A stretch of DNA of 10,383 nucleotides from a virus. A program made the translations under genes and the position numbers. A model generated the notes under the pieces. The model made no database searches. It was not told the DNA's origin and saw only the letters and a program-made list of their open reading frames with translations. This document shows, one piece after another, positions 1 through 10,349 of the stretch. The DNA is taken from the UHGV virus genome UHGV-0129844, one strand, 5' to 3'. Position 1 is the first letter of the stretch. The number at the start of each line of letters is the position of its first letter.

Positions 1-55
1 GGCAGACGATGATGCAGATAACCAGAGCGGAGATAATCGCGGTTACTCTGCTCAT
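1..55 (-). CDS. Rz: Rz spanin inner-membrane subunit, N-terminal 18 codons only (gene runs off the window edge)
   Basis: Reverse complement of 1-55 reads ATG AGC AGA GTA ACC GCG ATT ATC TCC GCT CTG GTT ATC TGC ATC ATC GTC TGC = [18 protein letters not shown], the lambda Rz N-terminus as I remember it. The ATG (55..53) overlaps the R stop codon (ATGA), as in lambda. Confidence 0.8.
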   Translation of the reverse strand, partial: MSRVTAIISALVICIIVC

Positions 56-528
56 ACATCAATCTCTCTGACCGTTCCGCCAGCCTCTTTGAATTTTGCA
101 ATCAGGCTGTCAGCCTTATGCTCGAACTGACCATAACCAGCGCCCGGCAGTGAAGCCCAGATATTACTGCAGCGGTCGATAGCCTGACGGATATCACCGC
201 GATCAATCATCGGTAAAGCACCACGCTCCTTAATCTGCTGCAGTGCAACAGCGTCCTGGCTTTTAGGAGAGAAGTCTTTCAGGCCAAGCTGCTTACGGTA
301 GGCATCCCACCAACGGGAAAGAAGCTGGTAACGTCCGGCTGCTGTTGATTTGAGTTTGGGGTTTAGCGTGACAAGTTTGCGAGGGTGATCTGAGTAATCA
401 GTGAATAGCTCTCCGCCTACAATGACGTCATAACCATGATTTCTGGTTTTCTGCCGTCCGTTATCAGTTCCCTCTGACCACGCCAGCATATCGAGGAACG
501 CCTTACGTTGATTATTGATTTCCACCAT
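52..528 (-). CDS. R: Endolysin R (lytic transglycosylase), 158 aa
   Basis: The supplied translation [39 protein letters not shown]...GGTVREIDV matches lambda R essentially along its full length (from memory). It lies immediately downstream of S with overlapping start and stop. Confidence 0.96.
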
Positions 529-835
529 CTTCTACTCCGGCTTTTTTAGCAGCGAAGCGTTTGATAAGCGAACCAATCGAGTCAGTGCCGATGTAGCCGA
601 TGAACACGCTCGTTATATAAGCGAGATTGCTACTTAGTCCGGCGAAGTCGAGAAGGTCACGAATGAACCAGGCGATAATGGCGCACATCGTTGCGTCGAT
701 TACTGTTTTTGTAAACGCACCGCCATTATATCTGCCGCGAAGGTACGCCATTGCAAACGCAAGGATTGCCCCGATGCCTTGTTCCTTTGCCGCGAGAATG
801 GCGGCTAACAGGTCATGTTTTTCTGGCATCTTCAT
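512..835 (-). CDS. S: Holin/antiholin S (S107 from Met1, S105 from Met3 at 829), class I holin
   Basis: The translation [45 protein letters not shown]... is lambda S with the characteristic Met-Lys-Met dual start. The upstream sequence CCCCTTATTGGGGGTAAGAC-ATG is the sdi stem-loop plus Shine-Dalgarno arrangement. Confidence 0.96.
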
Positions 836-1077
836 GTCTTACCCCCAATAAGGGGATTTGCTCTATTTAATTAGGAATAAGGTCGATTACTGATAGAACA
901 AATCCAGGCTACTGTGTTTAGTAATCAGATTTGTTCGTGACCGATATGCACGGGCAAAACGGCATGAGGTTGTTAGCGCAACCCCTTGCCACCCGCTTTC
1001 ACGAAGATCATGTGTAGAAGGCCGCAGCGTAACTATCACTGATGAATTCAGAATAGCCAGTGGCTACGGCTCAGTTA

Positions 1078-1153
1078 TGGTGCTGGTTAACGGACTTGAA
1101 CCGCTACCCATTCGCTTACAAGACGACTGCTCTACCATTAGAGCTAAACCAGC
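1078..1153 (-). tRNA. tRNA-like gene, 76 nt, anticodon UGU (Thr-like), encoded CCA end
   Basis: Reverse complement: GCTGGTT TA GCTC TAATGGTA GAGC A GTCGT CTTGTAA GCGAA TGGGT AGCGG TTCAAGT CCGTT AACCAGC A CCA. Hand-folded: perfect 7-bp acceptor stem, 4-bp D stem with a GG-containing D loop, T arm with TTCAAGT loop, 7-nt anticodon loop cUUGUaa. The anticodon stem has one G.A mismatch and one G.U pair. The acceptor stem GCUGGUU resembles tRNA-Thr families. Confidence 0.6.
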
Positions 1154-1158
1154 ATGTT

Positions 1159-1233
1159 TGGCGGGACAGCGTGGACTCGAACCACGATAAGAAGGTTAAC
1201 AGCCTTCCGTAATGACCTTTATACGACTGACCC
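1159..1233 (-). tRNA. tRNA-like gene, 75 nt, anticodon GUU (Asn-like), encoded CCA end; possibly degenerate
   Basis: Reverse complement: GGGTCAG TC GTAT AAAGGTCA TTAC G GAAGG CTGTTAA CCTTC TTAT CGTGG TTCGAGT CCACG CTGTCCC G CCA. Perfect 5-bp anticodon and T stems, anticodon loop cUGUUaa and T loop GGTTCGAGTCC as in tRNA-Asn. The acceptor stem has one T.T mismatch (positions 4-69) and the D stem is weak, so it may be a pseudo-tRNA. Confidence 0.5.
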
Positions 1234-1296
1234 AAATAAAAAATCCCGAAACCGTTATGCAGGCTCTAACTATTACCTGCGAACTGTTTCGGGATT
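1234..1296 (-). terminator. tR' intrinsic terminator (end of the 6S RNA), read through only by Q-modified RNA polymerase
   Basis: Plus-strand ATCCCGAAAC (1243-1252) pairs perfectly with GTTTCGGGAT (1287-1296). On the minus-strand RNA the hairpin is followed by AUUUUUUAUUU (1234-1244). The sequence matches the lambda tR' region from memory. Confidence 0.8.
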
Positions 1297-1430: not shown

Positions 1431-1465
1431 GAGTCAAATTTACCCAACTTTATTCAATAAGTCAA
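1431..1465 (-). promoter_or_regulatory. Late promoter PR' with the Q-utilisation (qut) region
   Basis: On the minus strand: -35 TTGACT (plus-strand agtcaa, 1460-1465), 17-bp spacer, -10 TAAATT (plus-strand aattta, 1437-1442). This is the same arrangement as lambda PR'. Q is encoded immediately upstream. Confidence 0.8.
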
Positions 1466-1507: not shown

Positions 1508-2131
1508 CTAACGTGTGACCGCATTCAAAATGTTGTCTGCAATTGACTCTTCCTTGTGGCATTGCACCACCAGAGCGTCATACAGCGGCTTAACAGTGCG
1601 TGACCAGGTGGGTTGAGTAAGATTTGGGATTAGCATCGTTACAGCGCGATATGCGGCGCTTGCTGGCATCCTTGAATAGCCGACGCCTTTGCATCTTCCG
1701 CATTCTTTCTCAACAACTCTCCCCCACTGCTCTGTTTTTGCTATATCAACCGCACGGCCTGTACCGTGACAATCTCTGCATCTTGCGCCCGGCGTCGCGG
1801 CACTACGGCAATAATCCGCATAAGCGAATGTTGCGAGCACTTGCAGTACCTTTGCCTTAGTATTTCCTTCAAGCTTTGCAACGCCACGGTATTTCCCCGA
1901 TACCTTGTGTGCAAATTGCATCAGATAGTTGATAGCCTTTTGTTTGTCGTTCTGGCTGAGTTCATGCTTACCGCAGAATGCAGCCATTCCGAATCCGGCT
2001 TGTGATTGCGCCATCCCCATAGCAGCCATCACATCAGTACCGGAAAGAGAGTCAGAAGCCGTAGCCCGTGGTGAGTCACTCATCATTGGGCTTTTTGGCG
2101 AATGAAATTTAGCTACGCTTTCGAGTCTCAT
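1508..2131 (-). CDS. Q: Late-gene antiterminator Q, 207 aa
   Basis: The translation [27 protein letters not shown]...[37 protein letters not shown]... is lambda Q along its full length (memory). The start overlaps the stop of the upstream phosphatase gene. Confidence 0.96.
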
Positions 2132-3748: not shown

Positions 3749-3927
3749 CTTGTATGCCTCGCACGTTCTCTAAGCCACCGGATATCCCACAGGTGAGCCG
3801 TGTAGTTGAAGGTTTTTACGTCAGATTCTTTTGGGATTGGCTTGCGTTTATTTCTGGAGCGCTTCGTTGGAAGGTATTTGCAGTTTTCGCAGATGATGTC
3901 GGTGATACTTCGTCGCTGTCGCCTCAT
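3745..3927 (-). CDS. ninE: NinE, 60 aa
   Basis: From the internal Met of the 90-aa track ORF: [60 protein letters not shown], matching lambda NinE. The ATG (3927..3925) overlaps the methyltransferase stop as ATGA. Confidence 0.85.
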
Positions 3928-4451
3928 GCCGCCCTCCTGACGCCCTGCCCGATCGCCATCAATGCCGCTTTGGATACGGTAGTAAACATCCGTCGAGGAC
4001 TGATGAACGGTCGCCAAATCAGCAGCATGGAGCCTTTGCTGTTTCCCTTCTTCTCCAGCCCTGTCGATGGTTCGATAAAATTAATCCGTCCATCAGTGAT
4101 AATGCGAACTTCGTCGACACTCTCCAGAGCCTTGCTGAACCATCCGACTGACATATCCTCTGGCACAAGCATCACTACCGCCTGTCGCTGTTGTATGCAC
4201 TGCTCAGCGGCTTTTTCCACCCACGGTCTGATATTGCTGTAAGGTGGGTTATTCCAGATTGCACCGTAGCTTATCCACTCAGAATTGAGCGCGTCGTCGG
4301 CCTCAGTTAGCCAGTGAGCGCACAGAGCATTTTTGTCGCTCGCTGCTGAATCCAGCCAGAATCCAAACTCAATATCCAGCGCATCAAAAAGCCAAAGCGG
4401 CGTTTGCCAGCAGTCCTTGTCGTGTGCTGGCGTATTTGATTTGATAGTCAT
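3924..4451 (-). CDS. Phage Dam-like DNA N6-adenine methyltransferase, about 175 aa
   Basis: The protein contains [12 protein letters not shown] and the NPPY motif (methyltransferase motif IV), typical of the small phage N6-adenine methyltransferase family. The preferred start ATG at 4451 overlaps the ninB stop (ATGA); an alternative upstream ATG exists at 4478. Confidence 0.78.
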
Positions 4452-4894
4452 GCAGCCTTCCCTTTTCGTTGTGACCATTCATACTCTCGCCGGGAGTCAT
4501 CACTCCACCGCACGTTGCGCTCTGAGCCGAACCAGAACATGATTTCGATAAGCTCAGTCATGCTGGACTTTCGCATTTTGCTGGTACGCACGCCAAGCAT
4601 AACAACGCCACCGTCGATACCAGGCACACTTCGTTGCTCCAGTTTTTTGGTCTTAAGCCACAGGGCAGTGAACAGATCTTTCCAGTCTTCCGGCGCCAGC
4701 CGTTGACCATGCCATAGCACCTGACGCGAAACATCGTTCAGCATCGGCCACATACGGTCATTCTGCGCTTTGCTGCGTTTGGGTTCTCTAACGTGGACTT
4801 CGTGGGGTGACTTGTCGTCGATGGGTAGTGAGAGAATGGCGTCTATGGCGTTATTTCTGATTGCTTCGTTACGAAGCATGTATATTTGCTTCAT
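4448..4894 (-). CDS. ninB: NinB family recombination protein, 148 aa
   Basis: MKQIYMLRNEAIRNNAIDAILSLP...QNDRMWPMLNDVSRQVLWHGQRL...[20 protein letters not shown] resembles lambda NinB (orf146) in conserved blocks (QNR-W, DVSRQV-WHG, WSD-EW) and sits in the expected nin position. Confidence 0.82.
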   Translation of the reverse strand: MKQIYMLRNEAIRNNAIDAILSLPIDDKSPHEVHVREPKRSKAQNDRMWPMLNDVSRQVLWHGQRLAPEDWKDLFTALWLKTKKLEQRSVPGIDGGVVMLGVRTSKMRKSSMTELIEIMFWFGSERNVRWSDDSRREYEWSQRKGKAA

Positions 4895-5521: not shown

Positions 5522-6958
5522 TCAGAATCCTCCTTTCTTCTTGGACTGCGGTTCCTCGCGTTCACGGCGGCGCATTTCAGCAGACTGTTGGTCTGTGTCA
5601 TAAATAGCGCCATTTGCCTGAATGCAATACACCGTGCCGGTATTGCCATGACGATTGAGGCGAAGGATTAGTTCGGTTTCACCAGGTGGAACACTGTCAT
5701 CAAAAGCACCTTCACGATGGATCCCCACCCAATAATCGCAATCCTGTTCAATCTGCCCTGTATCTCGTGAGTCACTTGGCAATGGGCGTTTATTGGTTCG
5801 GCTTTCCAGTGCGCGGTTAAGCTGTGTCAGAAGCACAACAACGCAATCAAGCTCTTTGGCAAGGTTCTTCAGTCCTTTGGTGATCATGCCGTAAGCAAGG
5901 TCGTTGCGATCGGCCTTTTCAGCGGTCATTAGTGTCAGGTAATCGACCAGAATCATGCCAACACATCCTTTTTCTCGCTTGATTCGACGGCTTTCGCTGA
6001 CGATTTGAGACAGAGATAATCCCGGCGTGTCGTCGATGTAAAGCAGGTCGATTTCACTCAAGCGATTGGCTGTTTCGATCGCCCTGTTGAAGTCACCATC
6101 GTAATCACCCTGATAGCCGTCATCAGCGTCATTTGTCGCCGGAAGGTAAAAAATATTCGGGTTAACACCTGACTTCTGTCCTACCAGTTTTTCCAGTATC
6201 TGGTCACCGGGCATTTCAAGGCTGAACATCAGAGCGGGCTTTTTCTCATGCACTGCGCAGTTGATTGCCATCTGGCTGTATAGCGTCGTTTTCCCCATCT
6301 TAGGGCGAGCGCCAATGACAAACAGAGAGCCTTTCACCAGGCCTTTCGGTGACAGCATCCTGTCCAGCGATGGGATCCCTGTGCTCATTCCTCGTTGTTC
6401 GCCTGACGGGTCAAATCGCTTCTCAAGGTCGCTAACCCAGTCTTCCATGACCTCACCAAATGAGCGAAGGCCGCGACGCGATCCGGTTTTTGCATGGTCT
6501 GTCAGTTGCGTGAAAATCGACTGAATAGCTTCGTACTTCTGCGTTGCAGTCATTCCGTTGCGGGAATAGAGCAATTCCGTCGCTTCAGTCATGCGGTTGA
6601 TGGCGTAGCGTTCCATTGCGGTTTCACGAACCTGCATTGCATAGGCAACGATGTTTGCTGCGCTTGGCGTGTTCTTTGCGATCTCAGCGATATAAGCAAA
6701 ACCGCCAACAGACACCGTTAACGATTTACGCTCCAGTTCATCGAAAAGCGTCAGGCCATCTACTGGCTTTTGCTCACGGTGCATTCTGGTTATTTCTTCG
6801 AAAATGATTTTGTGTGGTCGGCTGTAAAATGAATCAGGCTTCAGCATCGCCAGGACTTTCTGGACGCGCTCACTGCTGTCATCATCCAGAAGCAATCCAC
6901 CAATCACCGCCTGCTCTGCCTCGATGCTATGGGGCGGCGCATAAAAATTATCGGTCAT
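5522..6958 (-). CDS. DnaB-family replicative DNA helicase, about 478 aa
   Basis: Walker A motif GARPKMGKTTL, a DnaB-type N-terminal domain (SIEAEQAVIGGLLLD) and C-terminal RecA-like domain, similar in layout to P22 gp12-type phage helicases. The ATG at 6958 (MTDNFYAPP...) is preferred over the GTG at 6973 that the ORF track uses. Confidence 0.9.
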   Translation of the reverse strand: MTDNFYAPPHSIEAEQAVIGGLLLDDDSSERVQKVLAMLKPDSFYSRPHKIIFEEITRMHREQKPVDGLTLFDELERKSLTVSVGGFAYIAEIAKNTPSAANIVAYAMQVRETAMERYAINRMTEATELLYSRNGMTATQKYEAIQSIFTQLTDHAKTGSRRGLRSFGEVMEDWVSDLEKRFDPSGEQRGMSTGIPSLDRMLSPKGLVKGSLFVIGARPKMGKTTLYSQMAINCAVHEKKPALMFSLEMPGDQILEKLVGQKSGVNPNIFYLPATNDADDGYQGDYDGDFNRAIETANRLSEIDLLYIDDTPGLSLSQIVSESRRIKREKGCVGMILVDYLTLMTAEKADRNDLAYGMITKGLKNLAKELDCVVVLLTQLNRALESRTNKRPLPSDSRDTGQIEQDCDYWVGIHREGAFDDSVPPGETELILRLNRHGNTGTVYCIQANGAIYDTDQQSAEMRRREREEPQSKKKGGF

Positions 6959-7847
6959 CGTGTTCACCCTCACGAACTTTCAGGTAGGTATTATCGTTAA
7001 GCAGGAAATCAAATCCCTTTTTGTGCCAGACGGTTCCGCGTTGATGGTTTGGACGCTCTTCGAACATCCATCGGCAATTTTCGCCTACGTAGCTCAAATA
7101 ATTTCTCCAGTCCTGCATCGTGAACCCATGCCCGTCAAGCTGGCGGGTTATCACTCCGGCTTTGCGCCAGAACGTTCGGATCTGGTTTTTACGCTTGTCA
7201 TTCAGTGCGCGGATTTTTGGCGCTTCAGGAAGGATTTCGTGGTAAGCATCGACAACATCCTGACAGCTAACGGAAGGTTTTTTCTTGTCAGACTTTTTGT
7301 CTGCTGTGGCACTCTCTAATACGTCAGTATTAGAGATAATATTATTATATTCTTTATCTGTGGTAATTTGCTGGTAATCTGCTGGTACAGTATTGCTTAC
7401 AGGCATTGGTATTGCTGGCTTTGAGGTGGTAATTTGCTGGTAATCTGCTGGTACAAAATTTGACTGATAATCGTCATATTTCTCTACCGAGAAAACTGAG
7501 AATTTACCGTGTGAAACCCAGTCAATCATGCCGAGTTTTTTGAACTTTCTAAGCAGGTACTGAACGCGATCTGGTTTGAGTCCTGTTTCAAACGCCAGAG
7601 AGTTTCTACCGCCAAGTAGCTTCCCTCTGCCTACCAGAATTTCTCCTGCGTCAGTCATTACATACTCAGGCGTATGCTTTGCTTTGAGGATTAAGTGAAC
7701 CCACAGATGCGCTGCTTCTGCGTCCTTGTAAAACGGCACATCCATAATTTTACGGTGCAGCAAGGCATACCCCTTACCGCTGCTTTGATGCGGTTGTTGT
7801 AGCCTTCTGGCCTCTCTGGCTTCGGCTAGATTAGATATGTTACTCAT
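6948..7847 (-). CDS. Replication initiator protein (functional analogue of lambda O / P22 gp18; not lambda O by sequence), 299 aa
   Basis: It sits where O would be, directly after cII/oop and before the helicase. The ori-type iteron repeats lie inside its coding sequence and encode the repeated peptide [11 protein letters not shown] strong AAGGAG lies 7 nt upstream of the ATG. Confidence 0.78.
7361..7455. repeat. Origin-type iterons: two identical 29-bp direct repeats with nested GCTGGTAAT/GCTGGTACA sub-repeats, flanked by an AT-rich tract
   Basis: TGGTAATTTGCTGGTAATCTGCTGGTACA occurs at 7361-7389 and again at 7427-7455. The degenerate copy GGTATTGCTGG lies between them, and the AT-rich stretch GATAATATTATTATATTCTTTATCT lies at about 7335-7359. 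Confidence 0.7.
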
Positions 7848-8728: not shown

Positions 8729-9445
<717 letters not shown>

Positions 9446-9476
9446 TTCAACGCAGCAAAAAAGGGTAATTCAATTA

Positions 9477-10349
9477 ATGGAACATGATGATTTACAGCAA
9501 TTACCATCCCCATTCGCAAAATGGAAGGGGAAGATCGACTTAGGTGGTGAAAGTATTGATTGCTATGTGCTTGACACTGGACATCGTGTTATAGCTTTGC
9601 GAGCAACTGTAAAAGCAATTGCCAATGCGGAGTCAGGAGACCTGGCTAAATTTATTGGCGTTAGCTCACTTAATGGCTTTATAGACAAAGACTTAGTCCT
9701 GGCCGAACTCATAGAGTTTTCCATACCAGGAACCCAATTTAAGAGCCAAGGACTTAAGACTGAGCAATTTGAATTGATTTGTCGCGGCTATGTACAGGCG
9801 CTATACAAAGGCGCGCCATTGACAGATAGACAGCGAGAAATAGCAATTAAATGTGCTGTATTAACAGCAGGTTTAACCAGGACTGGGTTAGATGCTCTAA
9901 TTGATGAGGCTACTGGGTATCAGTATGAGCGCGCAGAGGATGCTCTCCAAGTAAAACTCAGGGCGTTCATCGCTGAGGAACTAAGAGCATGGGAAAAAAC
10001 ATTTCCTGATGAGTTATGGGAAGAATTTGGTAGATTGACAGGATGGAGTACCCCATTGCAATCAAGGCCCAAATGGTGGGGGAAATTAGTTATAGAGTTA
10101 ATTTATGACACTCTTGACGAAGATGTGGCTAAATATCTTAAAGAAAACAAGCCTGCGGCAGGAGTTCACTGGCATAGACAGTTAACCGAGAACCTAGGTG
10201 TAAGGCAGCTTGTATCAAGGTGCTGGGAGGTTATTGGGGTCGCAAAAACATGCGACACCATGCATGAGCTAAGAAGTCGAGTTGCTCAACACTATGGAAA
10301 GAAACCTGTTCAAATGACAATGTATTTACCGGAAAAAGAAATTAAATAA
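9477..10349 (+). CDS. Hypothetical soluble protein, about 290 aa, in the position lambda uses for rexA-rexB
   Basis: The ORF is in frame from 9381, but the first ATG after the cI stop is at 9477 (MEHDDLQQLPSPFAKWKGKIDLGG...) with an AAAAGGG motif upstream. It has no long hydrophobic segments and no resemblance to RexA or RexB. It ends KEIK* directly before an intrinsic terminator. Confidence 0.7.
   Translation: MEHDDLQQLPSPFAKWKGKIDLGGESIDCYVLDTGHRVIALRATVKAIANAESGDLAKFIGVSSLNGFIDKDLVLAELIEFSIPGTQFKSQGLKTEQFELICRGYVQALYKGAPLTDRQREIAIKCAVLTAGLTRTGLDALIDEATGYQYERAEDALQVKLRAFIAEELRAWEKTFPDELWEEFGRLTGWSTPLQSRPKWWGKLVIELIYDTLDEDVAKYLKENKPAAGVHWHRQLTENLGVRQLVSRCWEVIGVAKTCDTMHELRSRVAQHYGKKPVQMTMYLPEKEIK

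Follow-up and report, generated by a model that had tools for sequence, protein, structure and literature searches.

We analysed a stretch of viral DNA of 10,383 nt (UHGV virus genome UHGV-0129844), which is called the window in the following sections and to which all coordinates refer. The late operon of this virus, a lambda-like prophage, is located on the minus strand. Its regulatory part involves a lambda-type gene for the late antiterminator Q (1508..2131, minus strand, 207 aa), which matched the Pfam family PF03589 (Antiterm) with an E-value of 1.3e-57. A promoter scan returned the late promoter pR′ (TTGACT, 17 nt spacer, TAAATT; 1437..1465, minus strand) as the sole promoter-like site. 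Further downstream follows the terminator tR′ (1234..1296, minus strand), which consists of a long hairpin (1296..1242) and the run TTTTTTATTT (1243..1234) and which is the 3′ end of a 6S-like leader RNA. For the fold of the tR′ hairpin, a free energy of -26.9 kcal/mol and a z-value of -5.8 were calculated and none of 200 shuffled sequences was equally stable. The 3′ end of the Q gene and the downstream leader, with which pR′ of the window aligns, are 95-100% identical to lambda and this degree of identity extends through the TTTTTTAT of the T-tract of tR′ (lambda 44781).

Immediately behind this terminator, both ARAGORN and Rfam called two tRNA genes, a tRNA-Asn(GUU) gene (1233..1159, minus strand, 75 nt, discriminator G73) and a tRNA-Thr(UGU) gene (1153..1078, minus strand, 76 nt, discriminator A73). 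In the direction of transcription, tRNA-Asn comes first and is followed by a 5-nt spacer (AACAU; 1154..1158, minus strand) and by tRNA-Thr. The CCA 3′ end is encoded in both genes. When scored with the Rfam model RF00005 (gathering score 29), tRNA-Asn reached 55.3 bits and tRNA-Thr 61.0 bits. For both tRNAs, the match covered the full length of the model (positions 1-71). They show the canonical cloverleaf with stems of 7, 4, 5, and 5 bp, and the cloverleaf was also the minimum-free-energy fold of the tRNA genes. The first nucleotide of tRNA-Asn (G1, position 1233) directly follows the run TTTTTTATTT. We considered a separate promoter between tR′ and the tRNA genes but rejected this candidate, since there is room for 0 nt and the scan returned none but pR′. 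A first-pass annotation of this DNA, which was made from the letters alone, had proposed just this arrangement: tandem Asn-like and Thr-like genes at 1078-1233, which are separated by 5 nt, have the CCA encoded and begin where the U-tract ends. ARAGORN, with the isotypes Asn(gtt) and Thr(tgt), and Rfam reproduced it exactly.

Between the tRNA genes and the S gene there is a conserved non-coding late leader of about 240 nt (836..1076, minus strand). Most of it is 85-100% identical to lambda and the conservation is also visible in Sf6 and mEp506. In RNA folds of this leader, we observed a second hairpin with the motif GUUUUG at about 996..955. The terminator scan flagged neither tR′ nor the second hairpin, owing to its rules for loops and T-runs, and thus both structures were assessed by RNA folding instead. 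Among the protein genes of the late operon, that of the holin S comes first (512..835, minus strand; Pfam PF05106, E=2.4e-30). Thus, on the late strand, the tRNA cassette has the Q-dependent late terminator upstream and the holin gene downstream. The next open reading frame (52..528, minus strand, 158 aa) occupies the position of the endolysin R. It matches lambda R in position, length and overlap with S, and our Pfam search at E≤0.001 yielded no match for it. When the neighbouring open reading frames were analysed with PADLOC, the output consisted of orphan methyltransferase matches (Dam-family gene) and one weak match in a repressor HTH region.

Substitution relative to lambda and structure of the tRNAs

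The substitution was mapped in an alignment that comprised lambda, Sf6, and mEp506 in addition to the window. Here, we found that 159 nt of the window (1235..1077, minus strand) stand where lambda has 163 nt (44782-44944). Identity to lambda resumes at AACTGAGCC (window 1076, lambda 44945) and continues to S. The substitution is real and it consists almost exactly of the two tRNA genes. Lambda-like flanks that enclose a replaced block of similar length had been proposed in the first-pass annotation, and the alignment bears out this proposal and places the boundaries at 1235 and 1077 of the window. The lambda sequence assumed there was also correct. The lambda segment is unrelated to the window block. 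The two were no closer to each other than shuffled sequences are (p=0.11 for local and p=0.12 for global alignment), ARAGORN made no call in lambda 44782-44944 and Rfam reported nothing tRNA-like there at E≤10. We therefore rejected the idea that the lambda segment is a decayed tRNA pair. In phage 21 and Sf6, the identical tRNA block is joined at the same TTTTTTAT to a 21-type Q and terminator region. These data indicate that the cassette is a mosaic module, which occurs behind either type of late terminator.

As non-canonical pairs, Infernal marked U4·U69 and U13·U22 in tRNA-Asn and G27·A43 in tRNA-Thr. The anticodon arm of tRNA-Asn reads GAAGG/CUGUUAA/CCUUC, and the anticodon stem of tRNA-Thr involves the G27·A43 mismatch, U28-A42 and U31·G39. 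Both anticodon loops (CUGUUAA in tRNA-Asn, CUUGUAA in tRNA-Thr) comprise 7 nt with U33 and a purine at position 37. The T-arms contain GGTTCGAGTCC and GGTTCAAGTCC, respectively, and both T-loops conform to GTTCRA. In E. coli, the synthetase identity elements are G34, U35, U36, and G73 for tRNA-Asn and G1-C72, C2-G71, G35, and U36 for tRNA-Thr. All of these elements are present in the tRNAs of the window and this agreement suggests that the host AsnRS and ThrRS would charge them.

Conservation and distribution of the cassette

The 156-nt block is highly conserved. We found 154 identical positions (98.7%) in phage 21 and Sf6 and 153 (98.1%) in HK446 and mEp506. Among the 59 phage records that hold at least 80% of the block and in 369 E. 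coli genomes, the cassette is conserved to 97-100%. The latter come from a set of 5,426 complete genomes of E. coli and their tRNAs are annotated as such by the NCBI pipeline, and a lambda-type junction of tR′ and tRNA-Asn with the same layout is present in 85 E. coli genomes. The tRNA-Asn is 100% identical in phage 21, Sf6, HK446, BTP1, and Kapi1, and likewise in many phages that are mosaic in other respects. The closest full-length match to the late leader of the window is HK446, and in this phage as well as in mEp506 the spacer reads AAUAU instead of AACAU. Compared with the alleles of phage 21 and HK446, the tRNA-Thr of the window carries two exchanges, C14U in the D-loop and C31U, which converts C31-G39 into U31·G39. 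The exact window allele is rare and was found in only 2 of the 5,426 E. coli genomes. C31U weakens an anticodon stem that is already short.

The block, which the first-pass annotation took for a possible curiosity, has been annotated for a long time. Entries exist for phage 21, Sf6, SfI, BTP1, Kapi1, mEp506, Oslo, and SPN9CC, and the Sf6 annotation reads "similar to phage 21". In HK446, the cassette is present, yet unannotated. A paper on SfI described the tandem downstream of Q in 2013 and listed Sf6, ST64T, PS3, and phage 21 as carriers (PMC3636060). P22-like phages, too, can have tRNA genes at the 5′-terminal side of the late operon, a topic that is discussed in a paper on phage L (PMC8022706). 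Thus, the feature is an already known late-leader cassette of lambdoid and P22-like phages, which was first seen in phage 21.

For the question of function, the diverged copy of the Klebsiella phage Mulock is informative. In its tRNA-Asn, compensatory changes are found at 6-67 (A-U to G-C), 7-66 (G-C to A-U), and 28-42 (A-U to C-G), and in its tRNA-Thr the pairs 3-70 and 6-67 are both changed from U-A to C-G. When homologues from phages, from P7, and from the host were included, the consensus fold was the cloverleaf, and changes on both sides of a pair were observed for 7 of 20 pairs of tRNA-Thr and for 11 of 18 pairs of tRNA-Asn. The mismatches U4·U69 in the acceptor stem of tRNA-Asn and G27·A43 in the anticodon stem of tRNA-Thr, which had been named as imperfections in the first-pass annotation, are indeed present. 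However, they do not qualify as signs of decay, since both are kept in the diverged Mulock copy. Pseudo-tRNAs or an attP fragment were considered as a separate candidate and rejected, since both genes are of full length with CCA and there is no adjacent integrase. From the host genes thrU and asnT, the tRNAs of the window are clearly diverged. We are nearly certain that these genes are functional and belong to the known cassette.

Proposed role and competing explanations

P2 Old is the effector of the classic P2-lambda interference (Govande et al., PMC12445682). It kills via cleavage of the host tRNA-Thr(UGU), and the cuts fall at the paired CNG motifs that occupy nt 28-30 and 40-42 of the anticodon stem (PMC12445682). 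The tRNA-Thr(UGU) of phage 21, which is characterized by C28U/G42A and by a shortened anticodon stem, protected cells and resisted cleavage in vitro, and phage tRNA-Thr restored the decoding of ACA (PMC12445682). Mutagenesis of another phage tRNA-Thr (tRNA-Thr6) indicated that stem shortening and CNG alteration jointly confer resistance to Old, and Asn(GUU), which was among the tRNAs compared with tRNA-ThrU, was cleaved more slowly (PMC12445682). According to a preprint of July 2026, the tRNA-Thr(UGU) of HK446 is a strong anti-Old counter-defence for HK97, HK542, and Bas34, and a viral Thr(UGU) tRNA alone fails to rescue lambda from Old (bioRxiv 10.64898/2026.07.10.737580). HK446, which is described there as having a single tRNA, encodes a protein inhibitor (Oad2) as well, and in the authors' view it is doubtful whether the tRNA of this phage serves chiefly against Old (bioRxiv 10.64898/2026.07.10.737580). 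The targets of a second nuclease, PARIS AriB, are Lys(UUU), Thr(UGU), and Asn(GUU), in which it cuts the motif U36AAUC|N41 between nt 40 and 41, and U39A by itself abolishes cleavage of tRNA-Lys (PMC12409363).

We compared the corresponding positions of the window tRNAs with those of the host. In the tRNA-Thr of the window, positions 27 and 43 form an unpaired G·A, nt 28-30 read UCG, nt 40-42 CGA, and nt 36-41 UAAGC|G; for host thrU the corresponding entries are A-U, CUG, CAG, and UAAUC|A. In the tRNA-Asn of the window, we found G-C at 27:43, AAG at 28-30, CUU at 40-42, and UAACC|U at 36-41, and the values for host asnT are G·U, CGG, CCG, and UAAUC|C. Judged from the primary structures, both published recognition motifs (CNG for Old and U36AAUC|N41 for AriB) are absent from both tRNAs of the window. 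With respect to Old, tRNA-Thr has lost the paired CNG motifs and has a shortened stem, which is the same combination as in the tested tRNA-Thr21. The tRNA-Asn shares half of these determinants, namely the loss of the CNG motifs, and its anticodon stem has the full 5 bp. With respect to AriB, U39 and/or N41 are changed in the sequences of both tRNAs. This loss of the AriB motif is suggestive only, because the AriB paper shows that distal contacts matter. The anticodons correspond to the known targets, since UGU is the primary target of Old and a major target of AriB and GUU is a secondary target of AriB.

We propose the following scenario for the cassette. RNA polymerase starting at pR′ would normally halt at tR′ and, when modified by Q, would read through this terminator and transcribe first tRNA-Asn and then tRNA-Thr. 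On such a Q-dependent late transcript, the tRNAs would precede the lysis and virion genes. This part of the model was deduced from lambda, because the pR′-qut-tR′ region is nearly identical to its lambda counterpart. Host tRNA-processing enzymes would then excise the tRNAs from the long transcript, and AsnRS and ThrRS would charge them. The mature tRNAs may serve as nuclease-resistant stand-ins for host tRNAs that are destroyed by abortive-infection nucleases of the Toprim type. The relevant enzymes would be P2 Old, which prefers host Thr(UGU), and PARIS AriB with its targets Lys(UUU), Thr(UGU), and Asn(GUU). As a likely side benefit, the phage would gain capacity to decode ACA and AAC/AAU codons. 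We consider the replacement of nuclease-cleaved host tRNAs, with moderate confidence, to be the main selective role of the cassette. For the tRNA-Thr of the window, resistance and rescue would be expected by analogy, because this role was shown experimentally for the alleles of phage 21 and HK446, which are 2 nt different. A corresponding role of the tRNA-Asn would likewise be based on analogy.

Several observations define the reach of this scenario. A resistant tRNA-Lys(UUU), which would be required to replace the primary AriB target, is not part of the cassette, and thus the cassette cannot alone defeat the studied PARIS system. Moreover, the Q gene of the window contains 4 ACA codons, and thus a strictly Q-dependent rescue would come too late if the host tRNA-Thr(UGU) had already disappeared by the time of Q synthesis. 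The second hairpin in the late leader (at about 996..955) is a candidate terminator, and it could act as a stop that gives tRNA-only transcripts after read-through of tR′. In RNA-seq data of a BTP1 lysogen, the list of genes with TPM>100 sets the two tRNA genes aside. A high expression is thereby implied, although it is not stated. As to the tRNA-Asn, two details speak against a function as stand-in: its anticodon stem is not shortened and the Asn copy of Mulock keeps paired CNG motifs.

The classical reading, which was also offered in the first-pass annotation as support of late-gene codon usage, is codon supplementation only. Here, the tRNAs would top up the pool for ACA and AAC/AAU codons during the late protein burst and would not play any anti-defence role. 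This reading fits the placement of the tRNA genes, with which the late operon begins, and the fact that ACA is read by a single low-abundance host tRNA. An ACA enrichment was reported for SfI (17.3% vs. 7.1% in the host; PMC3636060), and 24 of the 25 Asn codons in the coat gene of phage L are AAC (PMC8022706). In genes of lambda, HK446, and the window, we counted 10-15 ACA per 1000 codons. Asn codons account for 51.5 per 1000 in the late genes of HK446 and for 35.7 per 1000 in those of lambda, and a codon-supply benefit of the tRNA-Asn may exist. However, the ACA frequency is similar in the late genes of lambda, which does not carry the tRNA (10.4 per 1000), and in those of HK446, which does (11.2 per 1000), and thus codon supply does not account for the distribution of the tRNA-Thr among phages. 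For the tRNA-Asn, the SfI authors saw no bias that would account for its presence (PMC3636060). In addition, overexpression of host tRNA-ThrU did not protect against Old, unlike the phage alleles (PMC12445682; bioRxiv 10.64898/2026.07.10.737580), and these data indicate that sequence and not dosage matters in the Old assay. Codon supply would also leave unexplained why the stem mismatch is conserved and why both nuclease motifs have been lost. Thus, codon counts lend the classical reading weak support, and as an exclusive explanation it appears rather doubtful to us.

Considerably less probable is the idea that the cassette is in the first place an RNA-processing element. According to this explanation, cuts by RNase P and RNase E at the tRNAs detach the late mRNA from the 6S-like leader and set the 5′ end and the stability of the S-R-Rz message, so that decoding would be secondary. 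The exact position between tR′ and the conserved leader is consistent with such a function, the lytic operon transcript of BTP1 was described as starting right after the two tRNA genes, and the phage L paper leaves undecided whether the late mRNA releases the tRNAs (PMC8022706). However, in lambda and P22 the same lysis genes are expressed although the cassette is missing, and RNA processing explains neither the conserved anticodons and identity elements nor the fact that P7 has the Asn+Thr pair as well, there under a different promoter. We thus regard this function as very unlikely.

For HK446, the Old preprint suggested compensation for a host tRNA gene that is disrupted by prophage integration (bioRxiv 10.64898/2026.07.10.737580). 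HK446, SfI, P22-like phages, and relatives of Sf6 do insert in thrW, but this gene encodes the CGU and not the UGU isoacceptor and attP rebuilds an intact thrW (PMC8022706). Moreover, Kapi1 inserts in argW and leaves it intact, yet it has the Asn/Thr pair. Since the tRNA-Asn would remain unexplained as well and a place behind tR′ in the late operon is the wrong one for expression in a lysogen, we rejected this explanation as highly improbable. Least convincing is the other option of the first-pass annotation, decayed pseudo-tRNAs or a functionless recombination scar: each tRNA has a non-canonical pair, position 14 of tRNA-Thr differs from the usual A, and the second tRNA is sometimes aberrant in relatives (ARAGORN made no Thr call in ST64T and JLK-2012), but the scores on the tRNA model (55-61 bits), the 97-100% conservation of the cassette with a tRNA-Asn that is invariant across many mosaic phages, the pair compensation in a Mulock copy that retains both "defects", and the function of near-identical Thr alleles in vivo leave hardly any room for it.

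Replacement of cleaved host tRNAs may also be part of a more specific scenario, which we put forward as a tentative and, taken as a whole, rather unlikely one. The Asn(GUU)-Thr(UGU) tandem might be a dedicated two-tRNA counter-defence cassette of lambdoid, P22-like, and P1-like temperate phages, which is tuned to the overlapping targets of Toprim tRNases of the P2 Old/PARIS AriB family that are found in rival P2-like prophages and P4-like satellites. The Asn member would itself be nuclease-resistant and required for full escape, the rare C31U allele would represent a further escape step, and read-through of tR′ ending at the second hairpin would provide a low Q-independent level of the tRNAs. 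If true, this low Q-independent expression would sidestep the need of Q itself for ACA decoding.

As a discovery, the cassette carries little weight. Its annotation dates back to the phage 21/Sf6 era, and reports on what its Thr member does appeared in 2025-26. Its value is that of a worked example, in which an apparent tRNA flaw, the mismatch atop the anticodon stem, turns out to be a conserved feature. Tested alleles that are closely related to the tRNA-Thr of the window and that carry this mismatch resist a defence nuclease.

Comparison with known systems

The tRNAs with which T5 and T4 counteract PARIS AriB and P2 Old resemble those of the window in that they carry the anticodons of targeted host tRNAs and substitutions at or near the cleavage sites. 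These resistant tRNAs act by replacing the cleaved host tRNA and leave the nuclease uninhibited. However, they belong to large arrays of virulent phages, whereas the cassette of the window consists of two tRNAs. T5 supplies the resistant Lys(UUU) that is needed against PARIS, and in the window cassette a tRNA-Lys is missing.

P1 and P7, which are temperate phages of enterobacteria, also carry a tandem of tRNA-Asn and tRNA-Thr with these anticodons, in this order and with a spacing of about 5 nt. Their tRNAs are only about 70-80% similar to those of the window, and the pair is located in the C1-controlled Op(ban) region and not in a Q-dependent late leader. In contrast to the tRNA-Thr of the window, that of P7 keeps an anticodon stem of full length (5 bp) and both of the paired motifs, CUG and CAG.

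In JLK-2012 (Asn-Thr-Gly) and in the Klebsiella phage Mulock (Asn-Phe-Thr-Arg), tRNAs occupy the slot downstream of Q and the Asn gene is common to these phages and the window, but the tRNA sets are different or expanded. The Stx phage 933W presumably carries ileZ-argN-argO in the slot between the late terminator and the lysis/toxin genes.

The closest correspondence was observed with phage 21, Sf6, and HK446, in which the order of the tRNAs, the 5-nt spacer, the start right after the T-tract of the late terminator, the downstream leader, and the lambda-type holin are the same as in the window. Phage 21 and Sf6 differ from the window by the 21-type Q and terminator upstream of the cassette, whereas HK446, mEp506, Kapi1, and phiv205-1 have the lambda-type Q/pR′/tR′ region in common with it.

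The Q gene and the late leader

Inspection of the Q gene (window 1508-2131, minus strand) revealed four ACA codons and, thus, synthesis of the late antiterminator itself needs tRNA-Thr(UGU). This requirement creates a timing difficulty for any rescue tRNA, a resistant phage tRNA replacing the host tRNA-Thr(UGU) cut by the P2 nuclease Old, that is encoded behind a Q-dependent terminator.

In the conserved late leader, about 85 nt downstream of the tRNA-Thr gene, we found a second GC-rich hairpin on the minus strand (GGCAAGGGGUUGCGCUAACAACCUCAUGCC, window 955-996), which is followed by GUUUUG. Lambda carries the same leader hairpin with a perfect stem, whereas the window version involves one mismatch and one wobble. 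On the basis of the old lambda literature, this hairpin may constitute a second late-leader terminator. If so, Q-independent read-through of tR' would give a short transcript containing the two tRNAs only.

Distribution and variation of the tRNA cassette

The tRNA-Thr allele of the window (1078-1153, minus strand; U14, U31) is rare. Of 5,426 complete E. coli genomes, just two, EC01307 and PEC011, contain an exact match, and the EC01307 copy is located within a P22-like prophage having a lambda-type Q. The whole window was found at a coverage of at least 80% in no complete E. coli genome.

In some relatives the second tRNA is aberrant. The annotated tRNA-Thr of phage JLK-2012 (comparison sequence L008, 481-556) is a hybrid, in which the 5' half resembles the phage cassette and the anticodon arm together with the 3' half resembles host thrU. 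Its anticodon stem, however, has two mismatches at the top (A27·C43, C28·U42), and a tRNA-Gly(UCC) gene comes next. In phage ST64T (L007, 476-552) and also in phage L, tRNA-Thr is replaced by a 72-nt tRNA-like sequence, the anticodon of which reads UAA ('Leu') and whose anticodon stem again has G·A at its top. ARAGORN made no call for either the JLK-2012 tRNA-Thr or the ST64T sequence. For phage L, the sequence in the tRNA-Thr slot has been annotated as tRNA-Leu (PMC8022706). Phage HK446 has been credited with "a single" tRNA, of the Thr(UGU) type (10.64898/2026.07.10.737580), and tRNA annotation is absent from its RefSeq/GenBank records. However, HK446 (L011, 35097-35252) does have a tRNA-Asn gene, which is identical to that of the window.

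In the same slot, Klebsiella phage Mulock (L009, 401-720) carries an expanded Asn-Phe-Thr-Arg array, and the interval that separates the late terminator from the holin gene appears to be a tRNA-collecting site in lambdoid phages. The P1-family phage P7 (L012, 1125-1278) contains a tRNA-Asn(GUU) gene and a tRNA-Thr(UGU) gene in the same order as the window, separated by about 5 nt and located downstream of the C1-controlled Op(ban) operators at a distance of some 650 nt. Thus, the Asn+Thr pairing recurs outside the lambdoid phages.

Other genes of the window in comparison with lambda

A Dam-family N6-adenine methyltransferase gene (3924-4478, minus strand; Pfam E=1e-64; PADLOC "orphan methyltransferase") is located in the nin region, flanked by ninB on one side and ninE on the other. 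On the same strand as the cI-like repressor gene and immediately downstream of it, there is an ORF of 322 aa that contains a P63C domain (9381-10349, plus strand; Pfam E=2.6e-22), for which PADLOC returned no match. This ORF occupies the place of rexAB in lambda, which is the usual seat of prophage-expressed accessory or exclusion genes. The replication module (5522-7847, minus strand) is of a non-lambda type. Its O-position protein (299 aa) matched no Pfam replication-protein family at E<=0.001, and a DnaB-type helicase of 483 aa is encoded where lambda has P.
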